The notes beneath the pieces are model-generated. The model saw nothing but the letters and a program-made list of their open reading frames with translations. It searched no databases and was not told the origin of the DNA. Of a stretch of DNA of 48,305 bases, positions 1,823 to 20,276 are shown piece by piece (the stretch's first letter is position 1; the number at the start of each line of letters is the position of its first letter). The position numbers and the translations under genes were made by a program. This stretch comes from a virus. The stretch is from positions 1 to 48,305 of the IMG/VR virus record IMGVR_UViG_3300032157_000017. One strand, 5' to 3'.

Positions 1823-3334
1823 CTAGCTCCCGTATCCGAATCCGCCCTCTTTGGGCAGAGGCTCGTCGCTGTTGTCGTTGTCGGGGCGGTCGAACTCGTG
1901 CAGTTCCATGACGATGCTGCCTCGGCCTCGGCTCGCGCGGGCCGCGCCGTAGGCGACGACGTCGAACCAATGCTTGAGCGGACTCGTCTTGTCGGGGATG
2001 AGCGAGTCCTTCTCGTCCACCTTGATCGACGAGAACATCTCCGCGGTCTTCTTGCAGTTCTCGAAGATCATGAGCGCCGGCGGGCGCTTGTCGTCGTAGT
2101 CGCGCAGCCGCTCGGCGACGCGCTCGGCGTTGCGCTGGATCGAGGCCTTGTCGGCGGGCTCCCAGAACACGCCGTGATCGGCAAAAACAGCCGCCTTGCT
2201 CTTGCCCGAGTCGCCGCGCTCCTCCCAGAGCTGTGTGTCGGCGACCGAGCTCATGAGGCGGCTCCGCCCCTCGCGCTTGTCCCAGAACCCGAAGCTCTGC
2301 TCGATCTCGACGATGCGCTTGGCGACTTCGGCGTCCTTCATCAGCCGGAAGTTGAACTCGTAGAACACATACATGTTCTCGTCGGGGTCGAGCGCGACCC
2401 AGATGCACGTCCCGTGCGTCTTGAAGCCCCAGTCCATGATCCGGAACTTGGGCCAGTCGCGCGGGATCTTGAACGGCGCGATGACGTGCACGCCCGGGTT
2501 GTAGTCGTCCTCGAAGTAGCCGCCCTCGACGCTATCCCAGTCGCCATAGAGGTAGCGCGCCCGCATGTGCGCGGGCTTCGAGAGCAGCTTGAACTTGTAG
2601 TCGCGGACGAAGCCCTTGTCGGGGTTATCGTCGAGCGTCGCGGGCAGGAAGAGCATCGTCTTCCATTCGAACTCACCCGTGAGCGGGTCGAGCACCTTCT
2701 TCTTCAGGATCGTGTTGCCCTTGCGCTCGGGGACGACGAAGGTCTCCTTTAGCCAGCCCGGCGCGGGGTTACTCATCAGCCGCGTGCGCTTCAGATGCTT
2801 GAGCACGGGGTCGGCGGTGCGCACGCGACCGTCGAGCTCTTCGTACTGCTTCTCTTCGAACTGGTAGGCCTCATCGAGGTCGAGGGCGGTGTACTGCTTC
2901 GAGAGGTAGTCCTCGTGGCTGTTGCTCTCGCGGCAGTGCCCGAACGTGTACTTGTAGCCGCTCGCGAACTCCCAGCGGTGAAGCTCCTTCGAGTAGTTCG
3001 CGTCCGGGTCGAACTTCTTGAACATCCGCATCGAGCGGTCGATGGTCTCCTGCAGCTGCGGCATGGTGCGGCGCATGTGCAAGCAGTGCCCCTCGCTCTC
3101 GCCCTGACGGATGGGGTGTTTGCGGCAGAGATCGGCGAGCCACTCGGGGAACTGGTCGAGAAACTGCCCCGTCATGCGCGCGTGCTCGACGACGGCCTGC
3201 GTGACGATGCTGTCCCAGAGCAGGGTCAGGCTCTTGCCGGGGCCTGCTGCTCCTCCGCCGAGCACCACGTCACACGTGGTTTCATGATACTTCGCGCTCC
3301 ACGGACTCGGCTGGTAGAGGGAGCGGTCGAGCAC
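1823..3334 (-). CDS. terL: Terminase large subunit
   Basis: 503 aa. Walker A GGGAAGPGKS, Walker B-like ALDLDEA, downstream SNP coupling-like motif, and C-terminal nuclease-type acidic motifs (RIMDWGF, HWFDVVAYG). Confidence 0.9.
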   Translation of the reverse strand: MLDRSLYQPSPWSAKYHETTCDVVLGGGAAGPGKSLTLLWDSIVTQAVVEHARMTGQFLDQFPEWLADLCRKHPIRQGESEGHCLHMRRTMPQLQETIDRSMRMFKKFDPDANYSKELHRWEFASGYKYTFGHCRESNSHEDYLSKQYTALDLDEAYQFEEKQYEELDGRVRTADPVLKHLKRTRLMSNPAPGWLKETFVVPERKGNTILKKKVLDPLTGEFEWKTMLFLPATLDDNPDKGFVRDYKFKLLSKPAHMRARYLYGDWDSVEGGYFEDDYNPGVHVIAPFKIPRDWPKFRIMDWGFKTHGTCIWVALDPDENMYVFYEFNFRLMKDAEVAKRIVEIEQSFGFWDKREGRSRLMSSVADTQLWEERGDSGKSKAAVFADHGVFWEPADKASIQRNAERVAERLRDYDDKRPPALMIFENCKKTAEMFSSIKVDEKDSLIPDKTSPLKHWFDVVAYGAARASRGRGSIVMELHEFDRPDNDNSDEPLPKEGGFGYGS

Positions 3335-3949: not shown

Positions 3950-4389
3950 TCGACCTCCTTCGAGGGGTACTCGGGGGCGCCCGGCATGCCGGCGGCGGTG
4001 GGCGCGGGCAGCACGAGCTTCGCGTTCACTTCGCGGGGGCCCTGGTGGGGCTGCTGGCGGCGAGCGCGCGCGATGCCGGTGTAGATCTGACCGGCGACGG
4101 CGATGAAGTTGGGCGCCAGGGAGCGGGGCGCCCAGCCAGCTTTCGCGACCTCGAGCCGCCGGCGAGCTGCCGCCTCGCCGAGGCGCTCGACCCATTCGGC
4201 GGGGGGTTCTTCCTGACCCGGGGAGACGTGGCACGCGTCGAGGGTCGCTTCGAGGATGCCCGCGGCGGTCTGGAAGACCTCGTCCTCGATTTCGAGCATG
4301 CGGGCGAGGCGAGCGGCCTTGGCGTCCTCGCCGTGAACCTCGCGGAGCAATGGCGTCGGGTAGAACGTCATGCGGAGGCAATATGGCAC
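3946..4389 (-). CDS. Hypothetical protein (147 aa, or 141 aa from ATG 4371); first gene of the late operon and a small-terminase candidate by position only
   Basis: Track ORF. I translated it codon by codon and third positions are almost all G/C. The track start at 4389 is a GTG. Confidence 0.7.
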   Translation of the reverse strand: MPYCLRMTFYPTPLLREVHGEDAKAARLARMLEIEDEVFQTAAGILEATLDACHVSPGQEEPPAEWVERLGEAAARRRLEVAKAGWAPRSLAPNFIAVAGQIYTGIARARRQQPHQGPREVNAKLVLPAPTAAGMPGAPEYPSKEVE

Positions 4390-4697
4390 GCCATCCGGCC
4401 AGTGACGAACGTTCAGTATTGGGTCCGATCGCCAAGCATCGGAGAGGAGAGCGTTTTTTTCTCGCAGAGGTCGCGCTGTTCCTGCGCACGAGCCGCCCGA
4501 AGCTGGCGCTGTTCCTGCGCGATCAGGGGATGTTGCAGCGGCTGCGCCTGACGGGGGGCTGGGGGTCGCGGCTGTTCACGACGGCGCGGGGGTTCGCGCT
4601 CGCGTGCGCGCACTTCCGGGCGATCCAGGGTGAGCGCGAGCAGCTCGGGGTCAAGCGGGCGCTCCGCGCGCGCAGGGCGCGGCGGGCGAAGCGGTGA
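4350..4697 (+). CDS. Hypothetical basic protein, possibly HTH/excisionase-like; start uncertain (ATG 4350, 4383 or 4527)
   Basis: From about 4460 to 4697 this frame has nearly uniform G/C third positions. Codons 4350-4460 are GC3-poor, so the true start is probably later. The opposite-strand frame sharing that third position is not open across this span. It contains the duplicated ALFLR-coding 15-mer. Confidence 0.4.
   Translation: MASGRTSCGGNMARHPASDERSVLGPIAKHRRGERFFLAEVALFLRTSRPKLALFLRDQGMLQRLRLTGGWGSRLFTTARGFALACAHFRAIQGEREQLGVKRALRARRARRAKR
4473..4520. repeat. 15-bp direct repeat GCGCTGTTCCTGCGC x2 (4473-4487, 4506-4520)
   Basis: Read directly. Each copy has GCGC...GCGC palindromic ends, and the copies are 33 bp apart. 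Confidence 0.85.
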
Positions 4698-4746
4698 GCG
4701 CGCGTTCAGCTTGCGGCCGATCGGGGCGGGCGTGTAGGGAGGCCTG

Positions 4747-5016
4747 ATGGGGAAGCATCAGCTCAGCGGGACACCGTCCCGATACGACGCGATCTGCACG
4801 CAGCTCTGCCGGGACCTGAAGGCGAAAGCCTGCATTCTGATCGTCGCCGAGGGGCGGGAGGGCAACGGCTTTGCCGTCGCGGGGCGCGAGGACTACGCGA
4901 CGATCGGGCATCCGAAGGTGCTGGCGGCATACCTCCGACACATCGCCGATCACGTCGAAAGGGGCGGCCCCGCGGGCATCGGCGTCGATACGACCGACGA
5001 AGGACCCGCGTCGTGA
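4747..5016 (+). CDS. Hypothetical protein (89 aa)
   Basis: Track ORF with GGGAGG 4 nt upstream of the ATG and natural composition (MGKHQLSGTPSRYDAICTQLCRDLKAKACILIVAEG...). Confidence 0.7.
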   Translation: MGKHQLSGTPSRYDAICTQLCRDLKAKACILIVAEGREGNGFAVAGREDYATIGHPKVLAAYLRHIADHVERGGPAGIGVDTTDEGPAS

Positions 5017-5077
5017 ACGAGCGGCGAACGGTGCGCGAGGTGCTGATCGTGGACCTCGTGGACTGGAAGTCGTGAAT

Positions 5078-5275
5078 ATGACCCCGACGGTGCACGTTCT
5101 CGCCTACGGGAGGGCGCTGTGCGGCTCGGTGCACGGGGTTCCGAGCGGATGGGGTCGGAACATGCGCTGGGTGAGCGCCTTCGGCAAGGAGTGGCGCACG
5201 GATGCGACGTGCTGCGCGTGCATCGAGATGGCGTTGCTGTTCGAAGAGCAGGAGCGGCGGCGTGGCGGGCACTGA
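5078..5275 (+). CDS. Hypothetical Cys-containing protein (65 aa)
   Basis: Internal ATG of track ORF 4871..5275 (MTPTVHVLAYGRALCGSVHG...). The upstream part of the track ORF is R/G/S-rich off-frame-type sequence. Confidence 0.6.
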   Translation: MTPTVHVLAYGRALCGSVHGVPSGWGRNMRWVSAFGKEWRTDATCCACIEMALLFEEQERRRGGH

Positions 5276-5462
5276 AGAGCCCCGCTGCTCCGTCTGTGGG
5301 TCGCGCGAGGTGACCTACGGCTACGGTTTTGCGGGCGGCGGAGGCATCGGGGCCTACATGATCTGCCTCGGGTGCGACCGGGTCATCGCGAAGCACGTCG
5401 AGGTGCCCGGCGAGAGCCTGATTCTGTCCCCTCCGGGGGTCGACGACGGGGAGACGGAGTGA
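5262..5462 (+). CDS. Hypothetical zinc-ribbon-like protein (66 aa)
   Basis: GTG at 5262 with AGGAG 7 nt upstream. CSVCGS ... CLGC pairs. Confidence 0.55.
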   Translation: MAGTEEPRCSVCGSREVTYGYGFAGGGGIGAYMICLGCDRVIAKHVEVPGESLILSPPGVDDGETE

Positions 5463-5632
5463 GTCTAGTCACGACGAAGCGGGGAGCGCAGTGCGCGCTC
5501 GCGACGCTGGTGAGCTTCCATGGCGGGATTCTGGCGGTGTTCGTCGGCGCGCCGGGACGCATCAGCATGGGGCTGTTCGCGCTGTTCCTGTTTTGGCTGA
5601 TGGCGTGGATCGTAGTGGAGAGCCAGCAGTGA
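5459..5632 (+). CDS. Small membrane protein (57 aa, two hydrophobic helices)
   Basis: GTG 5459 in a GTGA overlap with stop 5460-5462 (read). Hydrophobic segments ...ALATLVSFHGGILAVFVGAPGRISMGLFALFLFWLMAWIVV. Confidence 0.6.
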   Translation: MSLVTTKRGAQCALATLVSFHGGILAVFVGAPGRISMGLFALFLFWLMAWIVVESQQ

Positions 5633-5943
5633 AATACGAGCCGAAAGAGGGGACGGGATGGCAGGAGGGGACGACCCTGTATGCGGGGATCCGGCGCTGG
5701 CAGCTCCAGATCGACGGGGACACGTGGCTGCGGGTGACGGTGACGGAGAAGGCGGGGTTCGTGGTGAGCCGGGGGATGGGGGACGCGCACACGGTGCCGC
5801 ATCCCGAGGATCTCGGGCGCATCGAGCGCGACTTTGGGGTGCACGGGTGGCGCATCGAGGGGGTGATGCCGGTATTCGTGCCCTCGGTGGGGCAGGCCCT
5901 GCTCGCGCGGGCGGTCCAGCCCGGCGAGGAGAGGCTGGAGTGA
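5629..5943 (+). CDS. Hypothetical protein (104 aa)
   Basis: GTG 5629 in a GTGA overlap (read). Natural composition (KYEPKEGTGWQEGTTLYAGIRRWQLQIDGDTW...). Confidence 0.65.
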   Translation: MKYEPKEGTGWQEGTTLYAGIRRWQLQIDGDTWLRVTVTEKAGFVVSRGMGDAHTVPHPEDLGRIERDFGVHGWRIEGVMPVFVPSVGQALLARAVQPGEERLE

Positions 5944-6137
5944 ACAACCTGCCGCTCGAGATCGAGCGCCTGCAGCTGATTTGGGTGCTCTGCCGGCGCG
6001 CGGTGCGGGTGCATCTGCGGGAGTCGCTCCGGGAGACGCACAAGGACCCGTTCGTACCGCGGGCGCTGTGGGATGCAGCGGCCCGGGCGTACGTGCTGAT
6101 GTTCCCGGAGCCGGACGAGACGGATAGGCACCCCTGA
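5940..6137 (+). CDS. Hypothetical protein (65 aa)
   Basis: GTG 5940 in a GTGA overlap (read). NNLPLEIERLQLIWVLCRRAVRVHLRESLRETHKDPF... Confidence 0.6.
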   Translation: MNNLPLEIERLQLIWVLCRRAVRVHLRESLRETHKDPFVPRALWDAAARAYVLMFPEPDETDRHP

Positions 6138-6449
6138 ATGCCCGACACTGAACACTTGACATCCCACGGGCCGGCACAGAAGATGAGTCCCGGCGGACGA
6201 GAGCCGCTCGGAGGGAGCCAGGACGAGACGGAATCGCCGAAACCGCGGCGGTGTCCGGGTTTTCTCGTCCCGTTGGGGGCGATCTTGAAGGCTGCGGACT
6301 GGCTGTCGGCAGGGGTCGGTGTCTTCAGCCTCGGGCTGCTGCTCTGGATCCGGCACTGGTGGGCTGCGGGAGCCGTCGCGCTGGTGCTCGGGATGCAGCT
6401 GAGCGTGTTCTGGCGGCGTTTGCCCAGGCCTCCTGGGTCCGATTCGTAA
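6138..6449 (+). CDS. Putative membrane protein (103 aa; alternative start ATG 6183)
   Basis: Track ORF with two or three hydrophobic helices (FLVPLGAILKAADWLSAGVGVFSLGLLLWIRHWWAAGAVALVLGMQLSVFW). GC3 is moderate to high in the hydrophobic part. Confidence 0.5.
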   Translation: MPDTEHLTSHGPAQKMSPGGREPLGGSQDETESPKPRRCPGFLVPLGAILKAADWLSAGVGVFSLGLLLWIRHWWAAGAVALVLGMQLSVFWRRLPRPPGSDS

Positions 6450-6522
6450 ATTTAAGCTCGATGGGGTGGAGGGGTTCGCCCCGGCGTTGCCGGGGGGTGG
6501 GGCCCAGGGGGTACCCGGCACC

Positions 6523-6666
6523 TGTTCAGTGCCGCCCGTTCAGCGCCAAAGCGGAGCACTGAACACGCGTAGCTGCGCAGAAACCACTGAACAGCTGAGG
6601 AGTTGCACCAAGTGTTCAGTGGCAGGTGACACTGAACACACGAGGAGCTGCACAGGGCGTTCAGTG
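6523..6666. promoter_or_regulatory. Array of seven 9-mer sites (CACTGAACA / TGTTCAGTG) in the largest non-coding gap; protein-binding array of unknown role (operators, iterons or arm sites)
   Basis: Copies read at 6523-6531, 6537-6545 (variant), 6557-6565, 6585-6593, 6613-6621, 6630-6638 and 6658-6666 (variant). Positions 6613-6638 are a perfect 9-bp inverted repeat with an 8-bp spacer. Confidence 0.8.
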
Positions 6667-6901
6667 TCAGGGGCGCAGTGGTGGTGTGCCATCGGGGGAA
6701 TCGGCGGGGGTCAAGCAGAAAAGCACTGCCCCACTTCGGCGAGCAGAATGCACCCCCACCCCCGATACTGGGTGCGCTGCACCCATTGGCGTGGCAGGAT
6801 GAATGGGTCGGGAGCTCGGGACGCGGTAATTCCAGCCCGTCCCCACTCCCGATAGGCCCGGCTTCAGCCCAGCCTAACAGCCAACCGAAAGAGCCCGAAC
6901 C

Positions 6902-7255
6902 ATGCCCACCTACCTCGCCACGACCCGTCATCCCATCTCGAGCACCCTGCAACCGGGCGACGTCCGAGAGGTCATCCTGCCCGAGTTCCAGGATGCCAAG
7001 TCGCTCGGCGCGGCGCTGCGTGCCGCACGCCTGCTCCCGAGCGGCGTGCGCGTGAAGGAGTGGCGCCGTGAGGGCGGGCAGATCCACGTGTTCCCAACAC
7101 GCTGCGTTGGCATCCACTGCGTCTCTCTCGAGCCGCTGGCACCCATCGAGGTGAGCCCCGACGGTCGGACGCTTACCATCCTGTCGAGCGAGCCGGGTCA
7201 GACGATCGATGCGGGAGACGTCGTTATCGAGACGACCTTGCACCGGCTCGGCTGA
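6902..7255 (+). CDS. Hypothetical protein (117 aa)
   Basis: Track ORF. Translated by hand, it has good G/C third positions. It is preceded by the conserved leader GAAAGAGCCCGAACC-ATG. Confidence 0.7.
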   Translation: MPTYLATTRHPISSTLQPGDVREVILPEFQDAKSLGAALRAARLLPSGVRVKEWRREGGQIHVFPTRCVGIHCVSLEPLAPIEVSPDGRTLTILSSEPGQTIDAGDVVIETTLHRLG

Positions 7256-7359
7256 TAGCGACCGGCACAGAGGCGCTCGCTCACGCAAGCGCCTCGATGC
7301 TGGCCACTCTCGGCCAGGCATACCGGGCAATTCAGCCCGCCACAGAAGAGAGACCGAAC

Positions 7360-7848
7360 ATGGCACGCAACGAACACGGCCCGTTGGGCAAGGCTTGGAC
7401 GGATATCGGCTCGGACGTCAATTGGTCCGAGTATGGCGGCCGCTGGGCGCGGCACATCGAGGGAACGCGCTACCACGTCATTCGATTCGAGAACTGCCGC
7501 GAGTGGGGTGACGGCGCAACCGGTTACCATTGCGACCTGCAAGAGATCACGCTCGACAATCCGCAGTTGGAACGCGCTCTAGAATCGTGCGGCGGCTCGG
7601 ACCTCGATGGGGAGAGCAAGGTCGAATGGGTCAAGGTCGACGCTCTATCGAGCTACGGGGCTTACGCGCCTCTGTGGCAACAGGCGGGGACCAACGCTCG
7701 CGAGCTACTGCGCGCCGCAAAACGGGAGTCCCGCACGCTCGAGCGTGATGCCGACGCGCATGAAGAGCGCATGAATCGCCCGGTCAACGCGATCGGCACG
7801 TCCGCCCGCAATTACGGCCTCGGACGCATCCTCGGCTCGGACGCCTGA
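7360..7848 (+). CDS. Hypothetical acidic protein (162 aa)
   Basis: Internal ATG (aa 22) of track ORF 7297..7848, preceded by the leader AGAAGAGAGACCGAAC-ATG. Confidence 0.7.
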   Translation: MARNEHGPLGKAWTDIGSDVNWSEYGGRWARHIEGTRYHVIRFENCREWGDGATGYHCDLQEITLDNPQLERALESCGGSDLDGESKVEWVKVDALSSYGAYAPLWQQAGTNARELLRAAKRESRTLERDADAHEERMNRPVNAIGTSARNYGLGRILGSDA

Positions 7849-7920
7849 TACCGGCCCGGCTCGCCACCGATGGTAGCAAGCCGCACCGGCAATCACGCCG
7901 CACAGAAGAGAGACCCGAAC

Positions 7921-8100
7921 ATGAGAGCAATCGACTTGGAACACGGCATGCGTGTGCATGCAGAGGCTGGCGCCGACAGTGAAAGCGGCGCCGTCCTGCA
8001 GATCGACCTCGATGAGGGACGCGCGCTCATTGGCTGGGACCAGGGTACCCAATCGTGGACCGACGCTAGCGCGCTCGAGCCAGAGGAGACTGAGTCATGA
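7921..8100 (+). CDS. Hypothetical protein (59 aa)
   Basis: Internal ATG of track ORF 7870..8100, preceded by the near-identical leader AGAAGAGAGACCCGAAC-ATG. Confidence 0.6.
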   Translation: MRAIDLEHGMRVHAEAGADSESGAVLQIDLDEGRALIGWDQGTQSWTDASALEPEETES

Positions 8101-8294
8101 ACTTTTTCACGATTCGCGGTCGTAAGCACCCGGTCACCGTATCCACCGTGTATGGCCATTGCCACTCAGCGAGTGTCACGGTTGCAGGCAAGGAATACAC
8201 GAGCAGAGACGTCCCGTTCGGCATGCGACACGTCGCGGTCGAGAACTTGCTCGACCGCGTGCAGAAAGACCACCCGACCGCCGCGTGGGATTGA
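8097..8294 (+). CDS. Hypothetical protein (65 aa)
   Basis: Track ORF with an ATGA overlap with the previous stop and natural composition. Confidence 0.6.
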   Translation: MNFFTIRGRKHPVTVSTVYGHCHSASVTVAGKEYTSRDVPFGMRHVAVENLLDRVQKDHPTAAWD

Positions 8295-8337
8295 CCCCCA
8301 CGCGCGCCCACGTCAACCCCTCACAGAAAGAAGACCC

Positions 8338-8493
8338 ATGACCCGTTTCATCGCAGGCATCGCCGTTACCATCGCCGTCCAGCTCATTGGGTGGCCCCGC
8401 ATCGAGTCCGCCATCCGCGCCGCTGGCACTGGTGCCCAGCGCGCCTACCACACCGCTGAGTCCGAGCTGCGTGCAAGCGAGGTGGGCAAGTGA
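8338..8493 (+). CDS. Small membrane-anchored protein (51 aa)
   Basis: Internal ATG of track ORF 8152..8493 preceded by AGAAAGAAGACCC-ATG. N-terminal helix FIAGIAVTIAVQLIGW. Confidence 0.55.
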   Translation: MTRFIAGIAVTIAVQLIGWPRIESAIRAAGTGAQRAYHTAESELRASEVGK

Positions 8494-8729
8494 CTGAGTG
8501 CGAGATCCGGGACTGCGGGAAAGCCGCATACCACACCGTCAACGGTGTGGCGTGTTGCAACCGTTGCGCGCGCGACTTCGAGTCGGTGGGCATGGGCGCC
8601 GTCCGTTTCGACGGGCGTTGGCACGGGGTAAAGGGCGCTCGGTACACTGCCGAGCAGTGCGCCCTATTCCCGGGCGTGGATGCCGGTCGCGGCCCGTCCG
8701 CCGATGATGGGGGCGAGGTGGACAAGTGA
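8490..8729 (+). CDS. Cys-rich (zinc-binding-like) protein (79 aa)
   Basis: Track ORF with GTG in a GTGA overlap (read). CEIRDCGKAAYHTVNGVACCNRCARDF. Confidence 0.6.
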   Translation: MTECEIRDCGKAAYHTVNGVACCNRCARDFESVGMGAVRFDGRWHGVKGARYTAEQCALFPGVDAGRGPSADDGGEVDK

Positions 8730-8932
8730 AGCGCGCGGTTCGGCTGATAGAGGGCGTGCCGTACACGCGCTTCACGGTCCGTTACACGTTGGTCACCGGC
8801 CAACGTCGCCGCATGACGCGCTGGTCTCCTGGTTATCCGTGGGTCCGAGAAGAGGTCGCTCGCGAGCTATGCGCGCGCTTCGACCTCGATGGTATCAAGC
8901 CAGGCTCTGTCACGATCAACCCCGCGCCTTGA
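8726..8932 (+). CDS. Hypothetical protein (68 aa)
   Basis: Track ORF with GTG in a GTGA overlap (read). Confidence 0.6.
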   Translation: MKRAVRLIEGVPYTRFTVRYTLVTGQRRRMTRWSPGYPWVREEVARELCARFDLDGIKPGSVTINPAP

Positions 8933-9009
8933 CCATCACTCCGCGCCGCACTCTCACGGGGTACGGCGCGGGGATGACGGCCAATGGCCACAACCAAGGA
9001 ACCGAACAC

Positions 9010-9168
9010 ATGGGCACTTCCAAGACACGTCAGACGATCGCCACCGCTTACGCCGCTCTCGAGCGGGCCGCCGACGAGAACGGCATCGATGCGTGCAACC
9101 TATTGCGCAAGGCCACCGACGCGGCCGCGTCGCTAGACTACCTGAACGATATCGTGGGCGGCGCGTGA
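9010..9168 (+). CDS. Hypothetical protein (52 aa; alternative start ATG 8974)
   Basis: Real-looking tail of track ORF 8680..9168 (MGTSKTRQTIATAYAALERAADENGIDACNLL...). AAGGA lies 9 nt upstream within the leader AAGGAACCGAACAC-ATG. Confidence 0.55.
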   Translation: MGTSKTRQTIATAYAALERAADENGIDACNLLRKATDAAASLDYLNDIVGGA

Positions 9169-9311
9169 CTCTGCTGGTGCTGGCGGTCCTCTGTCTGTTT
9201 GCGGCGCTCCTGGTGCCAGTCGCCTTCTGTTTGCTGGCGGCCGCGCTCGAGTTCGTCGCCCGCTTCTGGCCGCTGCTGCTCGCCCTGTGGCTGCTCGTGA
9301 GGTGCATGTGA
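9165..9311 (+). CDS. Small double-pass membrane protein (48 aa)
   Basis: GTG 9165 in a GTGA overlap (read). TLLVLAVLCLFAALLVPVAFCLLAAALEFVARFWPLLLALWLLV. Confidence 0.55.
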   Translation: MTLLVLAVLCLFAALLVPVAFCLLAAALEFVARFWPLLLALWLLVRCM

Positions 9312-9700
9312 GCCGCTGCCCCTGGTGTCAGGCTGGGGTCGCGCCCGGGGCGACGGCACCCCGCCCTGCTGGGCAGTACTGCGCCGCCCACGCAGCGCCG
9401 CCACGCAACCCCGAGCCCTCGCCTCGGCAGGCGGACGTCGTCGCGGCCGTGCGAGAGCTGACGGCCGCTGGTGAGCCTGCGAGCGCCTCTGCGATCGCGC
9501 GCCGCCTCGGTATCAGTCGCCAGCTGGCCAGTCGCCAGCTCGGGGCTCTGGAGCGCAAGGGCATCCTTGCAGACGTCCCCAAGGTCGTCCGTTCGGGCAC
9601 GTGGGCAGAGGTCAAGCGCTCGAATGAGACGCCCGAGCGGGCGGCGCGCGTTGCGGCGCGCGTCGCCGCCGCTCTCGAGTCACCCGACGAGCCGCTGTAG
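9308..9700 (+). CDS. DNA-binding protein with an N-terminal Cys/His cluster and a winged-helix (MarR-like) domain (130 aa)
   Basis: GTG 9308 in a GTGA overlap (read; the track start 9287 is also a GTG). CPWC...C..H, then VVAAVRELTAAGEPASASAIARRLGISRQLASRQLGALERKGIL. Confidence 0.6.
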   Translation: MSRCPWCQAGVAPGATAPRPAGQYCAAHAAPPRNPEPSPRQADVVAAVRELTAAGEPASASAIARRLGISRQLASRQLGALERKGILADVPKVVRSGTWAEVKRSNETPERAARVAARVAAALESPDEPL

Positions 9701-9701: not shown

Positions 9702-10130
9702 TCAGAACGGAATGTCGTCACCGTCGAACGACTCGGCGGGCCCATCCTCGGGCTCGCCGCGGCCGTTTCTGGAGCTGCGTGCGCTGCCCTTGCCGCCGCC
9801 AGCGCTGCCGTTCACGATGACATCGTTCGCGACGACCTCGGTCTTGTAGCGCTTGACCCCCTCGCGGTCTTCATAGCTCGAGGTGCGTAGGCCCCCCTCG
9901 ATGAAGACCCGATCGCCCTTGCGCACGAGCTTGCCGAGCGCCTCCGCGCGCTTGCCCCAGACGACCACCGTGTGCCACTCGGTGCGCTCCTTACGCTCCT
10001 TGCCCTTATCCAGATAGGTCTCTGTCGTGGCCAGGCGCATGTTGAGCACGGCCTGCCCGCCCGCCGTCATGCGTAGCTCCGGATCGGCGCCGAGGTTTCC
10101 GAGTAGCATCACACGGTTGAGTCCGTTCAT
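9702..10130 (-). CDS. ssb: Single-stranded DNA-binding protein
   Basis: 142 aa from the internal ATG 10130 (AAGGAG upstream). OB-fold signature NRVMLLGNLGADPELR...TEWHTVVVWGKRAE, a Gly-rich linker and an acidic tail DGDDIPF. Confidence 0.9.
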   Translation of the reverse strand: MNGLNRVMLLGNLGADPELRMTAGGQAVLNMRLATTETYLDKGKERKERTEWHTVVVWGKRAEALGKLVRKGDRVFIEGGLRTSSYEDREGVKRYKTEVVANDVIVNGSAGGGKGSARSSRNGRGEPEDGPAESFDGDDIPF

Positions 10131-10143: not shown

Positions 10144-10347
10144 TTACGCAGCTTTGGGTGGCTCGGGCGTTGGCTCGTGCCACATGCGCATGTAGATACC
10201 AGGAACCGCGTCGCATGGGCTCTGGCAGAGGTAGCAGGGCTGCCAGCGCTCACCCGGGGCGAGCGCCGTCACGCGCACCGGCTCTCGCTCGGGACCGTTC
10301 AGCTTGCGAAAGCAGCCGATACAACACGTGCTGTTTTGCCAGCTCAC
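10144..10347 (-). CDS. Cys-rich small protein (67 aa)
   Basis: GTG 10347 in a GTGA overlap (read). STCCIGCFRK...CYLCQSPC. Confidence 0.55.
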   Translation of the reverse strand: MSWQNSTCCIGCFRKLNGPEREPVRVTALAPGERWQPCYLCQSPCDAVPGIYMRMWHEPTPEPPKAA

Positions 10348-10787: not shown

Positions 10788-11242
10788 GAGTCCGCCTCCG
10801 CGGAGAACCGATACTCGTCGCCGCGCGCGTCGCCGATGGGATTGGGGAATCCGAACTCGAGAGCGACGGCCTTGAATCGTGGCAAGCCGTATTGGGCATA
10901 GGTGCGATCGTCCGCGAGAGGCGACTCCAGAACCCAGAGCCACATGCCGACGACATGAAACATGAGGTCGGCAGAGATGCCGCGCTTATTCAGCGCTTTC
11001 TCGAACCCGAATGCGACGTCGCGCCCGAGTTGCTCGATGAGAGCTTCCCGCGTCCATGGATCGGGCTCGCGCGTAATGCGCATGCCGTCTGACGACCCGA
11101 CGCCGATGCGGGGCCACTCCTCTGTCGGCACCCACGCGGCGAGCCGCATGACCTCGCGCCCATCGAGGCAGGGGTAGCCCCATGGGTATTCCGCCCCGCC
11201 GGCAGCCTCGATCGCCGCTACGACATCAGCGAGCGCTTTCAT
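10784..11242 (-). CDS. Hypothetical protein (152 aa)
   Basis: Internal ATG (aa 55) of track ORF 10784..11404 in an ATGA overlap. MKALADVVAAIEAAGGAEYPWGYPCLDGREVMRL... Confidence 0.65.
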   Translation of the reverse strand: MKALADVVAAIEAAGGAEYPWGYPCLDGREVMRLAAWVPTEEWPRIGVGSSDGMRITREPDPWTREALIEQLGRDVAFGFEKALNKRGISADLMFHVVGMWLWVLESPLADDRTYAQYGLPRFKAVALEFGFPNPIGDARGDEYRFSAEADS

Positions 11243-14405: not shown

Positions 14406-14722
14406 GGCGCCTCCTTTTCGAGGCCATCGGCGATCATGCGCAGGCGCTGGGCGAGCTTGCGGAGGCAGCCGCGCGAGATTTCGTTGCCATCGGTGAGCGA
14501 GGCGCCGAAGGCGACCGGCAGCGGGCCATCGTCACCGACCACGAACGAGGCCCCGACCAGCACGACGGCGCGGAGGGCGGAGGCCTGTCTGGATTCGCCG
14601 GGGATGGTGACGCCGATGAGCTGCCGGGCGTGTTCGGAGAGCAGCTCGACCAGGTCGGATTGCGTGACGCCGGGCGCGACGGAGACGCCGGGAGGGAGGA
14701 CGGGGCCCATGGTGTCGTTCAT
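14402..14722 (-). CDS. Hypothetical protein (106 aa), tandem paralog of 14064..14405
   Basis: Track ORF with an ATGA overlap. See the paralog alignment for 14064..14405. Confidence 0.7.
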   Translation of the reverse strand: MNDTMGPVLPPGVSVAPGVTQSDLVELLSEHARQLIGVTIPGESRQASALRAVVLVGASFVVGDDGPLPVAFGASLTDGNEISRGCLRKLAQRLRMIADGLEKEAP

Positions 14723-14970
14723 TTCGAGGCCCTGCCTTTTGCGGTGAGTCTCGGGCGGATGATGGTGACGGGTTTCATCGATAGGTGACCTTTGGCTTGG
14801 AACTGACGGATGAATTGATGGGCGGAGGAGTGGCTCTTGCCGAGGGCTTCGGCGAACTCTCTCACCGTGGGGCTCTCGCCGCCGTTTTTCTCACAGAGCT
14901 TGCGATAGATGTCGAGGGCGTGTTGTTGCGCGCTCGTGAGGTTCATGTTCGGGAGGGGTTCATTGGGCAT
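14719..14970 (-). CDS. LexA N-terminal-domain-like winged-helix repressor with no peptidase domain (83 aa); first gene of the leftward early operon
   Basis: LTSAQQHALDIYRKLCEKNGGESPTVREFAEALGKSHSSAHQFIRQFQAKGHL matches the LexA DNA-binding-domain pattern (LT.RQ..vl.fi....G.pPt.rEia..lG..S......hl..L..kG.i). AAGGA lies 7 nt upstream of the ATG. Confidence 0.7.
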   Translation of the reverse strand: MPNEPLPNMNLTSAQQHALDIYRKLCEKNGGESPTVREFAEALGKSHSSAHQFIRQFQAKGHLSMKPVTIIRPRLTAKGRASK

Positions 14971-14980
14971 GCAGGTATCC

Positions 14981-15028
14981 TTACTGATGTGGACAAGTCA
15001 TGCTAGAGTGAGACAAGTCAATATGCAA
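14981..15028. promoter_or_regulatory. Overlapping divergent sigma70-like promoters with two GACAAGTCA repeats (candidate lysis/lysogeny switch)
   Basis: Plus strand: TTACTG (14981-86)-N17-TAGAGT (15004-09). Minus strand: TTGCAT (15028-23)-N17-TAGCAT (15005-00). GACAAGTCA at 14992-15000 and 15012-15020. The region is locally AT-richer. Confidence 0.55.
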
Positions 15029-15229
15029 TGTCCCTCTGCGTCACCCACACCCGCCGCCCGTCCCCGTCCATCCCCTCCTTCCCGCCCCGAGCCACGTACC
15101 GAAATGTGGCGGGGCGCGACACGCACCCTATACACTTTCGACACGGGGTGTCTACATGTCGACGCGGTTGGACGTCTGGGGACGCAGACGGACGCTATCG
15201 GCGCCAGGACGGCGTCAGAGGAGGCCAGG

Positions 15230-15586
15230 ATGGGCGGAGAGAGACCAGAGGGTCGGGCGAAGTACCTGCGGGTGCGGCCGGGGGAAGGTGTGGGCAATGG
15301 TGCGGCAGAGAACGACACGACGCCTGCGTTCACGGTGACGCGGGGGGAGCTCCGGGCGTTGGTGGCCGAGGCCGTCGCCGAGGCGCTCGAAGCAGAGCGG
15401 CCGGGGCCGCCGGCGCTGCTCACGCGCCAGCAGCTGGCGAGCGTGTTCGGCTGCAGCCCGAGCCTCATCGACAAGTTCTTGCGGCAGGGGCTGCCGTGCA
15501 TTCGGCTCGGCGACAGCCCGAGGTTTCAGGTCGAGGCTGCGCTCGAGTGGCTGCGCTCGGGCGAGCGCAAGGCAGGTGGGGCGTGA
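15230..15586 (+). CDS. Excisionase/MerR-type HTH protein (118 aa), Xis-like by position
   Basis: Internal ATG 15230 with GAGGAGG 5-6 nt upstream. C-terminal LLTRQQLASVFGCSPSLIDKFLRQGLPCIRLGDSPRFQVEAALEWL fits the excisionase-family HTH pattern. Confidence 0.65.
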   Translation: MGGERPEGRAKYLRVRPGEGVGNGAAENDTTPAFTVTRGELRALVAEAVAEALEAERPGPPALLTRQQLASVFGCSPSLIDKFLRQGLPCIRLGDSPRFQVEAALEWLRSGERKAGGA

Positions 15587-15765
15587 GCCCCGAGCAGGCG
15601 CGCGCGGTGCTGAAGCGCGAGGGCTGGAACTTCCTCGACCTGTTCGGACTGGTCGAGGCCTTCGCCGAGCTGACGGACGGCGGGCTCGACGCGAGGAGTC
15701 CTCGCGTGCGCGTGGTCATCAAACGGCTACCGCTGCGCAAGCGGACGAAGAAGGTGAAGCCGTGA
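15583..15765 (+). CDS. Hypothetical small basic-tailed protein (60 aa) directly upstream of int
   Basis: GTG 15583 in a GTGA overlap (read). SPEQARAVLKREGWNFLDLFGLVEAFAELTDGG...KRTKKVKP. Confidence 0.55.
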   Translation: MSPEQARAVLKREGWNFLDLFGLVEAFAELTDGGLDARSPRVRVVIKRLPLRKRTKKVKP

Positions 15766-17423
15766 CCGAGAAGCGTGGACCCGGTCGGCCCCGCACGGCC
15801 ACGCCGAAGCGCACGAAGGAGGGCCACTCGGCGCGCGTGTGGGTCGAGTGCGAGGGCGAGAAGGTGCGCACGACGGTGAAGCTCGGCACGAAGAGCCGAA
15901 TCGTGGCGCGGGCGCGCTCCAAACGCGTGCTCGCGGGGGAGGCGCCGGAGCTCGTGGCGGAGAAGAGCGAGAGCTTCGAGAGCGCGGCGCGCCGGTGGCT
16001 CGAGGCGAGCGCGGTGAAGGATCGGAAGCGGATGCTCGGGCGCCTGTCGAACCACGCCTTCCCGGTGATTGGGCAGATCCCGGTGAGTGAGCTGACGAGC
16101 GTGCACATCTTCGACGTGCTCGAGGACGTGGCGGGCAAGGTCGGGGGCTGGACGGGCAGCGTGCGCAACGTGCGCGACGCGATCAGCAAGGTGCTCGGGC
16201 TCCTCGTCGCGCGCCGGGTGCTGGACGTGAACGAGGCGCTGCGGATCAAGCTCAAGGGCAAGGACTCGCTCGGGGGCAAGCGCCTGCGCAAGGTCCGCCC
16301 GCCCCGAGCGGTGCTCACGGATGGGGAGTTCGAGCCGTTCCTCGCGTGGCTGGTGGTGGAGACGGAGCATGCGCACCCGGGCCGGGCGCGCCGGGCGCTC
16401 GAGGATGTGACGCTCTACTTTTCGGCGCGCGTGTTCGGGATGCGGTCGAGCGATGCGTTCTCGTGGCGGTGGGAGATGATCGAGCTCGGCGCGTTTGGCG
16501 ACGCGTACGTGCCGCGGCAGAAGACGGAGGGGCACCTGCTCGACGACGAGGACGAGGCCGAGGACGAGGCGTTGGTGCTCGAGCGGTGGCGGGACGAGCC
16601 GCGTGCGGCGATCCCCGAGGGGCTCGCGGGGTGGCTTCGGCTGTGGTGGGAGGCGAGCGGGCGACCCGAGGAGGGGTTCGTGTGGCCGGTGAGGCAGGGG
16701 GCGCGGGCTGGGGGGAAGAGGACGGCGGGGGCCCATGCCTTGCGGCTGCGGCGCCGGCTGTGGCAGGCGGGGGTGAGCCGAGCGCGCCCTGGGGTCACGG
16801 AGGTGAAGAGCCCCGCCGACTGCGTGCTGCAGACGGGCATCGCGCGGCGCATGAGCCCGGTCGACTTCCATTCGTTCCGGCGGGCGGCGGCGACGGCGGC
16901 GGGCAAGGCGGCGGCGGCGGGGCAGCTGAGCCTGCGGGAGGCGATGCTACTGACGCACCACAGCGATCCGGCGGTGTTTGCGCGGTATCAGGCGAGGGAG
17001 GAGCGCATCGTGGTTCCGGAAAGTTCCGTCCCGGCAATAGTGGCAGCGCCGGAGGCATTATCCCGAGTGGTTAAACACAGTCGGCAGCCAAAAACGGCTG
17101 TCAGTGAAGGCAAGGAGGCCGAAGTGAGGAGTGGTCCACCAACTTCTGAGGGCATCGATACCCCTGTTTTTAAGCCGTTTTCGCCTACGGCGAGTACCCC
17201 CGTAGGCGTCGTACAACCCCATAAAACGACCGACTGCCATTATTCGCTGCCAGTATTCGAGAGCCTCGCCGAGGTGCTCGAGTTCGCCGTGCAGCTCGCC
17301 ATGCGCGAAGGCGACATGAGCAGCGCGAAGGCGCTCCTCGACGTCGCTGAACGTCGCCGCGCTACCTTGCCCGACAACGTCCGACCCCTCGCACCGTCAG
17401 CGCGCAAGGGAGGCAAGCCGTGA
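15762..17423 (+). CDS. int: Tyrosine recombinase / phage integrase (553 aa)
   Basis: GTG 15762 in a GTGA overlap (read); the track ORF starts earlier at 15576. Catalytic-type motifs ARVFGMRSSD (Arg), HSFRR (H-x-x-R) and THHSDPAVFARY (His...Tyr). About 140 aa follow the Tyr. Confidence 0.85.
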   Translation: MTEKRGPGRPRTATPKRTKEGHSARVWVECEGEKVRTTVKLGTKSRIVARARSKRVLAGEAPELVAEKSESFESAARRWLEASAVKDRKRMLGRLSNHAFPVIGQIPVSELTSVHIFDVLEDVAGKVGGWTGSVRNVRDAISKVLGLLVARRVLDVNEALRIKLKGKDSLGGKRLRKVRPPRAVLTDGEFEPFLAWLVVETEHAHPGRARRALEDVTLYFSARVFGMRSSDAFSWRWEMIELGAFGDAYVPRQKTEGHLLDDEDEAEDEALVLERWRDEPRAAIPEGLAGWLRLWWEASGRPEEGFVWPVRQGARAGGKRTAGAHALRLRRRLWQAGVSRARPGVTEVKSPADCVLQTGIARRMSPVDFHSFRRAAATAAGKAAAAGQLSLREAMLLTHHSDPAVFARYQAREERIVVPESSVPAIVAAPEALSRVVKHSRQPKTAVSEGKEAEVRSGPPTSEGIDTPVFKPFSPTASTPVGVVQPHKTTDCHYSLPVFESLAEVLEFAVQLAMREGDMSSAKALLDVAERRRATLPDNVRPLAPSARKGGKP

Positions 17424-17683
17424 GCTGCGACCACAAGTTCGTCGACTCGAACGTCTGCCTGAAGTGCGGCGTCAGCATCGGCGCCCTGCTCGACCAAGAC
17501 CGCGGCGAGCTCGTCGGTATCGTCCAGAAGCAGAAGCTCGAGCTCGCCAAGCTCCGCGACGCGTTCGACGACGCCGTCGCGCTGCTGCGGGACTGGGAGG
17601 ACTACGACCCCGACGACGAACAGTGCGGCTGGGAGAAGCGGCGCGACGAGTTCCTCGCCGAGCACGAGGAGGCGGGGCGATGA
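17420..17683 (+). CDS. Hypothetical protein with an N-terminal zinc-ribbon-like motif (87 aa)
   Basis: Track ORF whose start overlaps the int stop. CDHKFVDSNVCLKCG followed by an acidic coiled-coil region. Confidence 0.65.
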   Translation: MSCDHKFVDSNVCLKCGVSIGALLDQDRGELVGIVQKQKLELAKLRDAFDDAVALLRDWEDYDPDDEQCGWEKRRDEFLAEHEEAGR

Positions 17684-17841
17684 GTTCAGCCTCCGAAGCG
17701 AACGCCGTCGGCATCTGCATCACCGGATGCAGCGTCGCCGTCGCGCTGCTCGCGGAAAGCCTATGGGTCGGCCTCGCCTCGCTCTTCGGCTTGGCGCTCG
17801 TCGACTTCTGGATCGAGTCCTTGCAGCGGAGGCAGCGGTGA
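17680..17841 (+). CDS. Small membrane protein (53 aa)
   Basis: Internal ATG 17680 (ATGA overlap). VGICITGCSVAVALLAESLWVGLASLFGLALVDFWI. Confidence 0.55.
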   Translation: MSSASEANAVGICITGCSVAVALLAESLWVGLASLFGLALVDFWIESLQRRQR

Positions 17842-18044
17842 GCACCGCGCACGACTGGCTCCGGCGCGACGGGATGACCGTGCGCGAGATCGCCAAGGCC
17901 CTGAAGATTTCAACCAACCGCGTCAAGCAGCTCGAGCACCGCGCCATCGCGAAGGTGCGGCAGAACCCCCGCCTGCTCCGGCGCCTGTTCGAGTTCGTCG
18001 ACTTCGATTGCGACGTCCAGCCACCCCAGAGGTCCCCTCGATGA
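17838..18044 (+). CDS. Stand-alone sigma-70 region-4 / LuxR-type HTH protein (68 aa)
   Basis: GTG 17838 in a GTGA overlap (read). MTVREIAKALKISTNRVKQLEHRAIAKVRQ matches the region 4.2 pattern (..EIA..lgiS...VrQi..RAl.KLR). Confidence 0.6.
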   Translation: MSTAHDWLRRDGMTVREIAKALKISTNRVKQLEHRAIAKVRQNPRLLRRLFEFVDFDCDVQPPQRSPR

Positions 18045-19117
18045 GGCACCAGTACACCCCCGTCTTCCGAGAGTTCACCACCAGCAGCATGTGGGCCGAG
18101 ACGCCCGCCACGCGCTGCGTCTGGCTGTACCTGCTCTTGCACGCCGACCCCGAGGGCTTCGTCCCCGGCACCGTGCCGGGCCTCGCCGTCGCCGCCAACG
18201 TCGCGCTCGACGACACCCGCTCCGCCGTCGAGAAGTTCATGGCGCCCGACCCCGACTCGAACAGCCAGAGCCACGAGGGGCGCCGCCTCCAGAAGGTCCC
18301 CCACGGCTGGCGCATCCTGAACTTCGAATACTGGCGCGAGCTCGCCCGACGCGAGGCCGAGAAGGCGCGCAAGCGGCGCTACATCAACGCGCGGCGTCGC
18401 GCCGAGAACGACACCGCCCCTCTCGAACCCGAAGATGTAGACGCACTGTCGACGGACGTAGACGCGAGTAGCGAAAGGCTAGACGCACCCAAACCGAAAC
18501 CCAAACCGGATCTTTCTTCATCTTCATCATCAACGGGCAGCGACGCACAGGTCGAACCTGTGGAGAGCCGCTCGCTCGTGCTCAAGGAACTGCCCGCCGA
18601 CATGGTGCTGCCCGAGCACCTCGCCGACGAAGCGCGCCAGGCGGGCGTCGCCGACCCGCACCGCTGGTTCGGTAAGCTCAAGGAGGGTCCGATCGGCGGC
18701 GAGCGCGGCGTGCTCGCTCACCAGCTCGAGAGCTACCTGCGGCGCCTGTTCGGTAGCTGGCGAACCTGGGAAGAGACGGAGCGGGCGAAGGATGCCCAAC
18801 GCTCCGCCGCTGCGGCCTCTCCCAGGCGCTTCGGAGACAAGCCCGTCCCCACCGACCCCTTCGACCCCGAGCCCCGCCACGAGGCGTTTGCGCGCCAGCA
18901 CGGACTCGACCTCGAAGCTCTGCTGAAGGGTGTGCTCGCTGACCACCCGCAACCACTCGTTGCCCCGCTCTCGAGACGCGCGGTGCTCGGCGAGCGGCTC
19001 ACGGTCGCCGCCAAGCAGAAGAAGATGGGGCAGCCCGTGACCGGCAAGCTCACCGCCGCGCAGACCGCCGCCTGGGGCCCCGTGCCTCCCGGCGGCGCCA
19101 TCCCGGAGGTCGCGTGA
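18041..19117 (+). CDS. Putative replication initiator/organiser (358 aa); function tentative
   Basis: ATG 18041 in an ATGA overlap (read). N-terminal domain MRHQYTPVFREFTTSSMWAE...VWLYLLLHADPEGFV, then an acidic/Ser-rich linker. It lies next to the J-domain and recombination genes. Confidence 0.45.
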   Translation: MRHQYTPVFREFTTSSMWAETPATRCVWLYLLLHADPEGFVPGTVPGLAVAANVALDDTRSAVEKFMAPDPDSNSQSHEGRRLQKVPHGWRILNFEYWRELARREAEKARKRRYINARRRAENDTAPLEPEDVDALSTDVDASSERLDAPKPKPKPDLSSSSSSTGSDAQVEPVESRSLVLKELPADMVLPEHLADEARQAGVADPHRWFGKLKEGPIGGERGVLAHQLESYLRRLFGSWRTWEETERAKDAQRSAAAASPRRFGDKPVPTDPFDPEPRHEAFARQHGLDLEALLKGVLADHPQPLVAPLSRRAVLGERLTVAAKQKKMGQPVTGKLTAAQTAAWGPVPPGGAIPEVA

Positions 19118-19698: not shown

Positions 19699-19949
19699 GC
19701 GGGCCGACGCCGCCGCAGAAACGGGTGCTGAAGTTCATCGCGCAGTCGGTGCGCGACCGGGGGTTCCCCCCGACGCTGCGCGAGATATGCGACCACATCG
19801 GCGCGACCAGCACCCACGCCGCCTATCAACACGTCCTCGGCCTCGTCCGGCGAGGGCTCATCACGAAGTCAGCAACGAAGAGCCGCGGGCTCGCGCTCAC
19901 CGAAGCGGGGCGCGACGAGCTCGTCTACCTCAAAGCGGAGGGCGCATGA
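19695..19949 (+). CDS. Second LexA N-terminal-domain-like winged-helix protein with no peptidase domain (84 aa)
   Basis: GTG 19695 in a GTGA overlap (read). PPQKRVLKFIAQSVRDRGFPPTLREICDHIGATSTHAAYQHVLGLVRRGLITKSATKSRGLAL aligns by eye with E. coli LexA residues about 5-70. Confidence 0.7.
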   Translation: MSGPTPPQKRVLKFIAQSVRDRGFPPTLREICDHIGATSTHAAYQHVLGLVRRGLITKSATKSRGLALTEAGRDELVYLKAEGA

Positions 19950-20245: not shown

Positions 20246-20276
20246 TGCGTCTCTACATTGACAAGGTCAATCACTC

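Follow-up and report, generated by a model that had tools for sequence, protein, structure and literature searches.

The virus sequence IMGVR_UViG_3300032157_000017 of IMG/VR, analysed here over its full length of 48,305 nucleotides (hereafter the window), carries between positions 6523 and 6666 a dense array of the 9-mer CACTGAACA, embedded in a conserved non-coding module. The array is real, non-random and conserved. As far as can be judged from the aligned sequences, the constraint acting on it is of the kind expected where a protein recognises DNA, and the 9-mers quite probably represent double-stranded DNA sites for a sequence-specific protein. Among the roles considered, we tentatively rank the iterons of a replication origin as the most likely one. 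The window represents a complete phage-like genome of 48.3 kb with a G+C content of 67.8%. The sequence stems from metagenome assemblies. It belongs to a lineage of uncultivated, high-G+C, temperate phages, for which no close relative was found among isolated phages.

The sites were read from the sequence between 6000 and 7100, with both strands counted. Seven copies are packed into the 145 bp of the array, five of them exact and two degenerate, and all coordinates given in an earlier sequence-only reading of this DNA were correct on re-reading (Table 1). The window as a whole holds six exact copies, starting at 6146, 6523 (minus strand), 6557, 6585, 6613 (minus strand) and 6630. This compares with 0.17 expected, and none of 100 dinucleotide-preserving shuffles reached six, which bears out the earlier estimate that an exact 9-mer should occur less than once by chance. 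Allowing for up to one mismatch, nine matches were obtained versus 4.4 expected, and the hexamer CTGAAC/GTTCAG is present 36 times versus about 14 expected from base composition, with 11 of these copies located in intergenic or regulatory positions. The stretch 6585-6671 is the top-scoring tandem repeat of the window (period 45, 1.9 copies, score 111). An inverted repeat of two copies had been described at 6613-6638; it lies at exactly these positions and extends to 13 nt (6612-6624 and 6627-6639) at 92% complementarity. The second shared element, said to follow the forward copies, is likewise real and reads GAGGAGCTGCAC in the relatives described below.

Table 1. Coordinates of the 9-mer copies, of the surrounding module and of selected genes in the window (strand "." marks features without orientation).
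Feature	Position	Strand	Remark
Terminase large subunit	1823-3334	-	
g7, second candidate reader of the 9-mer	4383-4697	+	predicted winged helix with long C-terminal helix; first gene of the operon
Core GTTCAGT in the g6/g7 junction	4411-4417	-	same offset in 11 relatives
Promoter-like element with exact 9-mer	6146-6184	+	9-mer 6146-6154, one base before TTGACA 6156-6161, N17, GAAGAT 6179-6184
Conserved non-coding module	6433-6901	.	from GGGTCCGAT to the start codon at 6902
AT-rich patch ATTCGTAAATTTAA	6442-6455	.	most AT-rich 14-mer of the 48-kb window (12/14)
GC-rich 5' block	6471-6518	+	GGGGTTCGCCCC 6471-6482, G-/C-run, invariant CCAGGGGGTACCCGG 6504-6518
Exact 9-mer (TGTTCAGTG on the plus strand)	6523-6531	-	starts 1-5 nt after the 5' block in the family
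9-mer with two mismatches (CGTTCAGCG)	6537-6545	-	14 bp after the 6523 copy
9-mer CACTGAACA with degenerate second element cgcgtAGCTGCgCAG	6557-6580	+	9-mer at 6557-6565
24-bp composite CACTGAACA-gct-GAGGAGTTGCAC	6585-6608	+	9-mer at 6585-6593; unit conserved in relatives
Exact 9-mer TGTTCAGTG	6613-6621	-	28 bp after the forward copy at 6585
24-bp composite CACTGAACA-cac-GAGGAGCTGCAC	6630-6653	+	9-mer at 6630-6638
9-mer with one mismatch (CGTTCAGTG)	6658-6666	-	28 bp after the forward copy at 6630
3' block	6738-6783	.	GGCGAGC 6738-6744, C-run, palindrome GGTGC-gct-GCACC 6771-6783
Candidate reader of the 9-mer, winged helix (LexA_DNA_bind / MarR_2 / HTH_20, Pfam)	9302-9700	+	last gene of the array operon
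SSB	9702-10130	-	
Integrase-like gene	15762-17423		
Exonuclease/annealing-protein fusion	20539-22266		

Relatives were collected by exact-pattern scans of IMG/VR and the JGI metagenomes and by look-ups of homologues of g7. In total, the module was found with the same synteny in 16 contigs (L004, L006, L013-L017, L023, L024, L028, L030-L033, L036 and L037), and terminase identity to the window ranges between 73% and 93% across the relatives. Conservation in relatives had been named as a check on the motif; once run, it returned not only the 9-mer but the whole gap. The genes on either side of the module are unrelated, so that it stands out as an island of conserved DNA. In all relatives, the aligned parts of the 5' block and the array show 72-100% identity, the upstream stretch 6300-6432 has no DNA match in the relatives, and g15 and g16 show none or only a short partial one.

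Within the arrays the 9-mer is nearly invariant (core ACTGAAC, invariant CACTG). The number of copies varies between five and ten per phage, as do their order and orientation. Certain start-to-start distances recur, namely 14 bp (same orientation), 28 bp (a forward copy, then a reverse one), 17, 33 and 44 bp. In most cases, NNN-GAGGAGCTGCAC comes after a forward copy, resulting in a composite unit of 24 bp; in L030 and L031, one such unit is inverted (GTGCAGCTCCTC-gag-TGTTCAGT) within co-linear flanks and beside a forward unit. A clear strand bias was observed across 11 arrays, with GAGGAG found 28 times on the plus strand and never on the minus strand, and CTGAACA 28 times versus six for TGTTCAG. 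Forward copies end in A, and reverse copies mostly correspond to ...AACG. The array keeps a fixed distance from the 5' block and its 3' side accommodates variable insertions. Five contigs terminate within or near the module, at differing positions. Since the sequence is common to co-occurring phages, we regard these ends as assembly breaks and not as genome ends. In all contigs that reach across it, the module is intact and has phage genes on both sides, and a host flank was never seen.

Two further observations concern the surroundings of the module in individual relatives. In the distant contig L035, which has no 9-mer array, the module's invariant anchor motif CCTGGGGGTACCCGG lies at about 9165-9195 between two leftward genes; this motif, which contains the palindrome GGGTACCC, may have a function of its own. 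In L017 (5654-5744) and L024 (797-887), a gene of 90-91 nt resembling tRNA-Ala(GGC) with a long extra arm is located directly upstream of the array module. This tRNA is genuine (55-57 bits against the Rfam tRNA model), and a second copy of the AT-rich 5' motif of the module stands ahead of it.

The gap at 6450-6901 had been singled out as the only long one in a tightly packed genome, and indeed no other stretch free of called genes is as long (452 nt, followed by one of 319 nt). The AT-rich patch at the start of the module lies about 68 bp upstream of the first 9-mer, and an equivalent patch, 65-70 bp ahead of the array anchor, is the top-ranking 20-mer in L014, L015, L032 and L033. From the 5' block, GGGGTACCCGG was found in every family member. 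The stem bases GGTGC/GCACC of the palindrome in the 3' block are invariant in 10 out of 10 aligned sequences, with a variable 3-nt centre, and in most relatives the module ends with a conserved leader and ribosome-binding site, after which come genes that are unrelated. On either side of this palindrome, CCCCAC(C/T)CCCGATA is found as a direct repeat (6754-6767 and 6841-6854, 87 bp apart), with a looser CCCCCGA...GATAG / CCCTCCGAT pair at the corresponding places in relatives.

The array is not coding. The earlier reading had raised the worry that the open reading frame (ORF) 6466..6855 might be translated and the repeats simply encode a peptide repeat. This was not borne out: the plus-strand frame is closed in 13 out of 15 sequences and open in the other two, its G+C content by codon phase is not gene-like, and it has no match to PHROG or other families. 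Between 6500 and 6750, the three phases show a G+C content of about 0.48, 0.61 and 0.72, compared with 0.8-0.95 at third codon positions in the flanking genes. Indels in the module among relatives are not multiples of three. Frames on the minus strand are open in nine out of 15 sequences, yet 1-nt indels in close relatives and non-gene-like G+C phases suggest that they are spurious. Several other identities for the module were tried and rejected. A sigma-54 promoter in the 3' block lacks, by eye, a conserved -24 GG and has no -12 GC, and no consistent hairpin with a U-tract was found at the 5' end that could form an intrinsic terminator. CRISPR-like and retron readings fail on missing partner genes. 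For a type III toxin-antitoxin RNA (ToxI/CptI-like), the 45-bp tandem repeat (1.9 copies) is not general in relatives, and the downstream genes are unrelated.

The strand bias described above raises the question of whether the module acts as RNA. According to this explanation, which we consider unlikely, it would be transcribed into a non-coding RNA or a long leader. The hairpins of this RNA, with stems of CACUGAACA and YGUUCAGUG, would expose GAGGAG (Shine-Dalgarno- or GGA-like) in their loops, and the RNA would either capture a host RNA-binding factor or a small RNA, in the manner of a sponge or decoy, or take part in antitermination or processing. Besides the bias, this explanation draws on forward and reverse copies that usually converge at a distance of 28 bp and would place the conserved 12-mer in the loop, on the genuine tRNA directly upstream in L017 and L024 after a copy of the AT-rich motif, and on folding that is somewhat better than in shuffled sequences for either strand (z-scores of -2.5 and -3.1), although the latter is expected of any DNA rich in inverted repeats. 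The RNA model was tested on hairpins formed by forward and reverse 9-mers with a 19-nt loop, giving 21 distinct units. Five of the stem pairs never vary, two positions are identically mismatched in 9/21 units (TGAGCAGTG opposite CACTGAACA), and no compensatory changes were seen. Covariation amounted to 0.059 compared to a shuffled mean of 0.078, with 476 out of 500 shuffles at least as high. RNAalifold showed no compensatory pairs in the 5' block and only the invariant 5-bp GGTGC/GCACC stem in the 3' block. Furthermore, the architecture is not conserved among close relatives, the inverted composite unit of L030 and L031 would show CUCCUC, and neither a consensus promoter nor a terminator was found. 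An Rfam search of the window and four relatives (gathering threshold or E-value ≤10) gave no match except chance matches at the microRNA level and the tRNA of L017 and L024. With neither covariation nor a conserved frame, the constraint appears to act on the 9-mer sequence itself, and not on pairing or a peptide.

Copies of the motif are also found outside the array. The sequence-only reading had pointed to GTTCAG-type sequences in other regulatory gaps, and GTTCAGT (4411-4417) and GTTCAG (4704-4709) are both present, as is the outlying exact 9-mer that it had placed beside a TTGACA hexamer. The former lies in the junction of g6 and g7, a stretch of about 75 bp (~4345-4420) with 89-100% DNA identity in 11 relatives, while the g7 proteins are only about 45-65% identical overall. 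This junction spans the start of g6 (ATG 4371, minus strand) and the first 13 codons of g7 (ATG 4383, plus strand, with a GGAGG Shine-Dalgarno sequence). It carries the palindrome ATGGC-ac-GCCAT and GAACGTTC and is located directly upstream of the g6-g5-g4-terminase operon; a pac/cos site or a late promoter may lie here. The junction of L030 and L039 contains two core copies at the 14-bp spacing also seen in the arrays, inside g7 codons with a changed peptide, which argues for selection at the nucleic-acid level; L037 has no junction copy. The imperfect palindrome GTGAGC-GCGC-GTTCAG at 4693-4710 covers the stop codon of g7 together with the first bases of the g7-g8 gap and has two mismatches to the Myxococcus xanthus LexA box on both strands, the best near-match in the window. 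From this region, the 13-mer CGTTCAGCTTGCG recurs at 10296-10308, probably in a small unannotated zinc-ribbon ORF upstream of the SSB gene; the hexamer copy at 10297 probably falls within a small unannotated coding region as well.

The promoter-like element with the exact 9-mer at 6146 stands at the beginning of a leader module (~6129-6290) that is conserved in nine sequences, namely the window, L006 (~10990-11210), L013 (~4400-4620), L014, L015, L017 (~4450-4670), L030, L032 (~7290-7500) and L033. In most relatives it directly follows g7, and in the window and L014 it lies just upstream of the array module. The N-terminal part of the ORF 6138-6449 is probably not coding, because it overlaps with this conserved leader module. 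The promoter-like element at 6146-6184 stays below the threshold of a consensus scanner, its assignment as a promoter being made by eye, and the distance from the motif to the -35-like hexamer differs among relatives, from adjacent to 17-18 nt. The leader module further shows a hairpin or inverted repeat with CTGAAC, the -35-like hexamer and GGCCGGGACAGAAGATGAGT, and ends with AATCGCCGAAACCGCGGYGGTGTC, often with GTTCAGCTACC. Its first hairpin has apparently compensatory substitutions (CGGC/GCCG, CAGCG/CGCTG, CTGCGG/CCGCAG).

The general idea of a cis-acting array of protein sites, either operators or iterons, was already part of the sequence-only reading and stands, given the conservation in 16 contigs, the variable architecture, the invariant 9-mer and the lack of covariation. 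In the model that we tentatively favour, one sequence-specific protein would bind the 9-mers and nucleate a multi-protein complex on the module. This complex would mark the phage origin of replication, and loading of the protein beside the AT-richest patch could help to open the DNA. Through the copies that stand singly or in pairs at the g6|g7 junction and at 6146-6184, this protein would also be able to adjust early and packaging transcription. Here, we infer all three components, i.e. protein binding, the identity of the protein, and replication initiation over pure transcription control. The origin is ranked first because the array is the sole iteron-like cluster in the repeat scans, lies at a fixed distance from the AT-richest 14-mer and is kept in every family member; no other iteron-like array appeared in a tandem scan of the whole window or in dispersed-repeat scans of 6100-6950 and 14500-23000. 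In addition, other functions have better candidates elsewhere, with the junction for packaging and the GACAAGTCA repeats at 14971-15103 for immunity operators.

Several observations weigh against an origin. Searches of the early-region proteins against Pfam, PHROGs and PDB sequences revealed no initiator (Rep, O), helicase or primase; several uncharacterised winged-helix proteins are encoded. The AT-rich patch is short (about 14 bp) and does not adjoin the first site, about 65 bp of very GC-rich sequence lying in between. DnaA boxes and IHF consensus sites are absent from all 15 modules. The array sits inside a co-directional operon without a switch in gene orientation, and the GC skew is featureless at the array, being uninformative as an origin marker. 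Classical iterons are spaced by about 21-22 bp, or about two helical turns, and the 14/28-bp spacing differs from this. A pure transcription factor would account just as well for the motif copies at promoter-like sites, and the strand bias in GAGGAG and in the last base of the 9-mer leaves room for a strand-specific role of RNA or single-stranded DNA.

In a close rival explanation, which we consider nearly as likely as the origin, a phage transcription regulator would use the array as operators or for an architectural purpose, with the sites acting as a roadblock, a looping anchor or a set of upstream sites of an internal promoter. A protein using the junction and 6146-6184 would coat the array and set the expression of the downstream half-operon, or loop over about 2.1 kb to the junction, in the way lambda CI bridges OL and OR. 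In line with this, conserved copies of the motif core occupy two promoter-proximal positions. At both of them, as read by eye, the window motif precedes a -35-like hexamer by 1-3 nt and shares its orientation (CACTGAACA-c-TTGACA at 6146, and ACTGAAC-gt-TCGTCA-N17-CATATT on the bottom strand ahead of the g6 ATG). Moreover, the 3' end of the module provides a conserved leader and ribosome-binding site before unrelated genes, and the first gene of the operon, g7, encodes a predicted RacA/BldC-like winged helix with a coiled-coil-like helix. There is also a precedent in P2 Cox, whose targets each carry at least six 9-bp boxes of differing orientation (PMC3936717). However, the promoter-like elements fall under the scanner threshold, and relatives vary both in the distance between motif and -35 hexamer and in that between array and putative downstream promoter. 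The downstream genes are non-conserved small ORFs, for which the strong conservation of a 450-bp regulator would be odd, and the spacing of 14/28 bp does not correspond to one helical turn.

Small MerR/Xis-like winged-helix proteins are typically excisionases or the DNA-binding domains of small terminases on short-repeat arrays. That proteins like g7 often have such functions (PMC3936717, PMC7498355, PMC11963761) would suit a region for an attP accessory protein (excisionase or recombination directionality factor), an integrase-arm region, or a small-terminase site (pac/cosB-like), as would the integrase gene without flanking non-coding DNA and the five metagenome contigs ending in or near the module. 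We nevertheless regard this group of explanations as improbable. The integrase lies 9 kb away, the terminase genes are more than 2 kb away and beyond the divergent junction, the module is intact in every spanning contig without any host flank, the contig ends are scattered as from assembly breaks at a shared repeat, and the invariant junction by the terminase operon is the better packaging candidate. Packaging and integrase-arm roles, both listed in the earlier reading, are therefore less likely because of the position of the array. The same reading had proposed host LexA, and operators of the host SOS response or a decoy array titrating host LexA are in our view very improbable. The conserved arm of the M. 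xanthus box does read GTTCAG, as correctly stated there, with TGTTCAGG in three out of four tested boxes (PMC9705874), and the motif stays constant while the phage regulators diverge, as expected of a host factor. In contrast, none of the 15 modules contains a full box, and CTGAAC-N4-GTTCAG never occurs, the gaps being 21-22 and 35-37. At up to two mismatches, the canonical box CTRHAMRYBYGTTCAGS matches only one of the 15 modules (a single match, in L006), and the best near-box of the window, also with two mismatches, lies outside the array at 4693-4710, with the count of near-matches at or below chance. A box with two deviations was unbound in the published assays (PMC9705874). A broader version, in which the module is a phage-borne decoy for a host factor, either as GTTCAG half-site DNA titrating or re-targeting a regulator or as a GAGGAG-loop sponge RNA, seems unlikely to us; if true, it would account for a fixed motif alongside diverging phage regulators, since the host factor would constrain the motif. 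A partition site, also suggested earlier, was rejected, as no ParA, ParM or ParB domain was detected among the early-region proteins scanned.

With regard to the protein that reads the 9-mers, our best guess is the LexA-DBD-like (DBD, DNA-binding domain) protein encoded at 9302-9700, also referred to as g22. It is present in 8/8 array-bearing loci that extend far enough, and its homologues keep the helix (S/T/A)RQxAx(R/K)(Q/H)L. The distant, array-less L035 has no g22-like homologue within the 16 kb fetched. This protein is one of three paralogous small proteins resembling only the winged-helix DBD of LexA, without a peptidase domain, the others being encoded at 14719-14970 (minus strand) and 19695-19949; it has an additional N-terminal CxxC...CxxH segment. 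The second candidate is g7. Its AlphaFold2 model (mean pLDDT 85) matched MarR folds, RacA-DNA (5i44, probability 0.99) and BldC (6amk, 0.97) in Foldseek, which are weak matches with all E-values at or above 0.009. The g7 family comprises 101 representatives and has no Pfam model, with stray matches to MerR and HTH_17 in one of 77 relatives each. The predicted recognition helix of g7 is poorly conserved in distant relatives retaining the motif, and L037 retains the array motif with a g7 that is only 35% identical. L037 and L035, a single case each, are suggestive of g22 and not of g7 as the reader. A host factor in this role would likewise agree with the constancy of the motif.

Almost none of the early genes are annotated. 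The array sits within a rightward operon of small unannotated genes (4383-9700), whose 5' end is back-to-back with the leftward g6-g5-g4-terminase operon and whose 3' end is convergent with the SSB gene. Portal and structural genes are encoded on the minus strand and continue across the window ends. The integrase has no match among isolated phages, and no non-coding DNA flanks its gene. An exact-pattern search for the host against a genome collection gave only a chance match to a low-GC, Clostridia-type metagenome-assembled genome, and the DnaJ-domain protein of the phage matches phages of many phyla, hence giving no pointer to the host. The fusion gene at 20539-22266 is a single ORF of 575 amino acids with a 5'-3' exonuclease part (Pfam 5_3_exonuc_N and 5_3_exonuc) and, at the C-terminus, the domain of a single-strand annealing protein (phrog_3290, E-value 3e-49). 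ARAGORN called a 97-nt tRNA-Gly(CCC) at 29935-30031 inside the structural gene 29843-30256 (minus strand), which has a high G+C content at third codon positions; this call is probably a false positive, and Rfam gave no tRNA in the window at the gathering threshold. In the divergent gap 14971-15103, between the LexA-DBD-like gene 14719-14970 and the helix-turn-helix/integrase operon, GACAAGTCA occurs twice (tgGACAAGTCAtgctagagtgaGACAAGTCAat), and the related TTGACAAGGTCAA is found at 20252-20271 (region 20246-20276). These two regions probably constitute an immunity operator set that is separate from the 9-mer.

No paper was found that describes the 9-mer motif in a phage context. The element is thus undescribed and belongs to a lineage without a cultured member, whereas the class of phage cis element is familiar. 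The module is the most conspicuous conserved cis element of this lineage, and its main value lies in providing an entry point to the biology of these phages. Settling between origin and control hub, together with the reader of the 9-mer, would anchor a functional map of the early region, and either an origin fragment or an operator/regulator pair could serve as a handle for vectors or reporters in the host.

Comparing the array with known systems, it shares the (T/C)GTTCAG arm with the LexA box of M. xanthus, a 17-bp imperfect palindrome of the form CTRHAMRYBYGTTCAGS (PMC9705874), and the phage encodes three small proteins with LexA-type DBDs. Unlike this box, the arrays lack the 17-bp palindrome and consist of isolated 9-mers at 14/28-bp spacing. 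BldC and RacA are MerR-like winged-helix proteins that bind cooperatively to variable numbers of short repeats (PMC5859096; 6amk, 5i44), and the MerR-like repressor Gp36 of mycobacteriophage D29 acts on GC-rich direct repeats (PMC12266134). The predicted fold of g7 resembles BldC and RacA, but the E-values are weak, g7 is not a member of their sequence families, and the repeats occur in both orientations. P2 Cox and 186 Apl bind arrays of 9-bp boxes in mixed orientation at several loci per phage (PMC3936717, PMC7498355). Similar to these, the module has five or more 9-bp boxes of variable orientation, the motif is found at more than one locus, and the first gene of the early operon, g7, encodes a small protein predicted to be a winged helix. 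In contrast to Cox and Apl, whose boxes lie 10-11 bp (one helical turn) apart and which have attP next to int as one target, the distances here are 14, 17, 28, 33 and 44 bp, the integrase-like gene lies at a distance of 9 kb, and conservation of the motif is not accompanied by conservation of the g7 recognition helix.

Iteron-type origins are known from phage P4 (ori/crr with TGTTCACC octamers), from lambda ori and P1 oriR, and from the non-coding origins of lactococcal and streptococcal phages. The array differs from them in having no recognised initiator, a short AT-rich patch behind a GC-rich block, and neither DnaA nor IHF sites. It resembles them in its dense, invariant short repeats of variable copy number, which lie in both orientations within a non-coding early region, in the AT-rich patch nearby, and in the extra copies near promoters, as is the case for autoregulating initiators.

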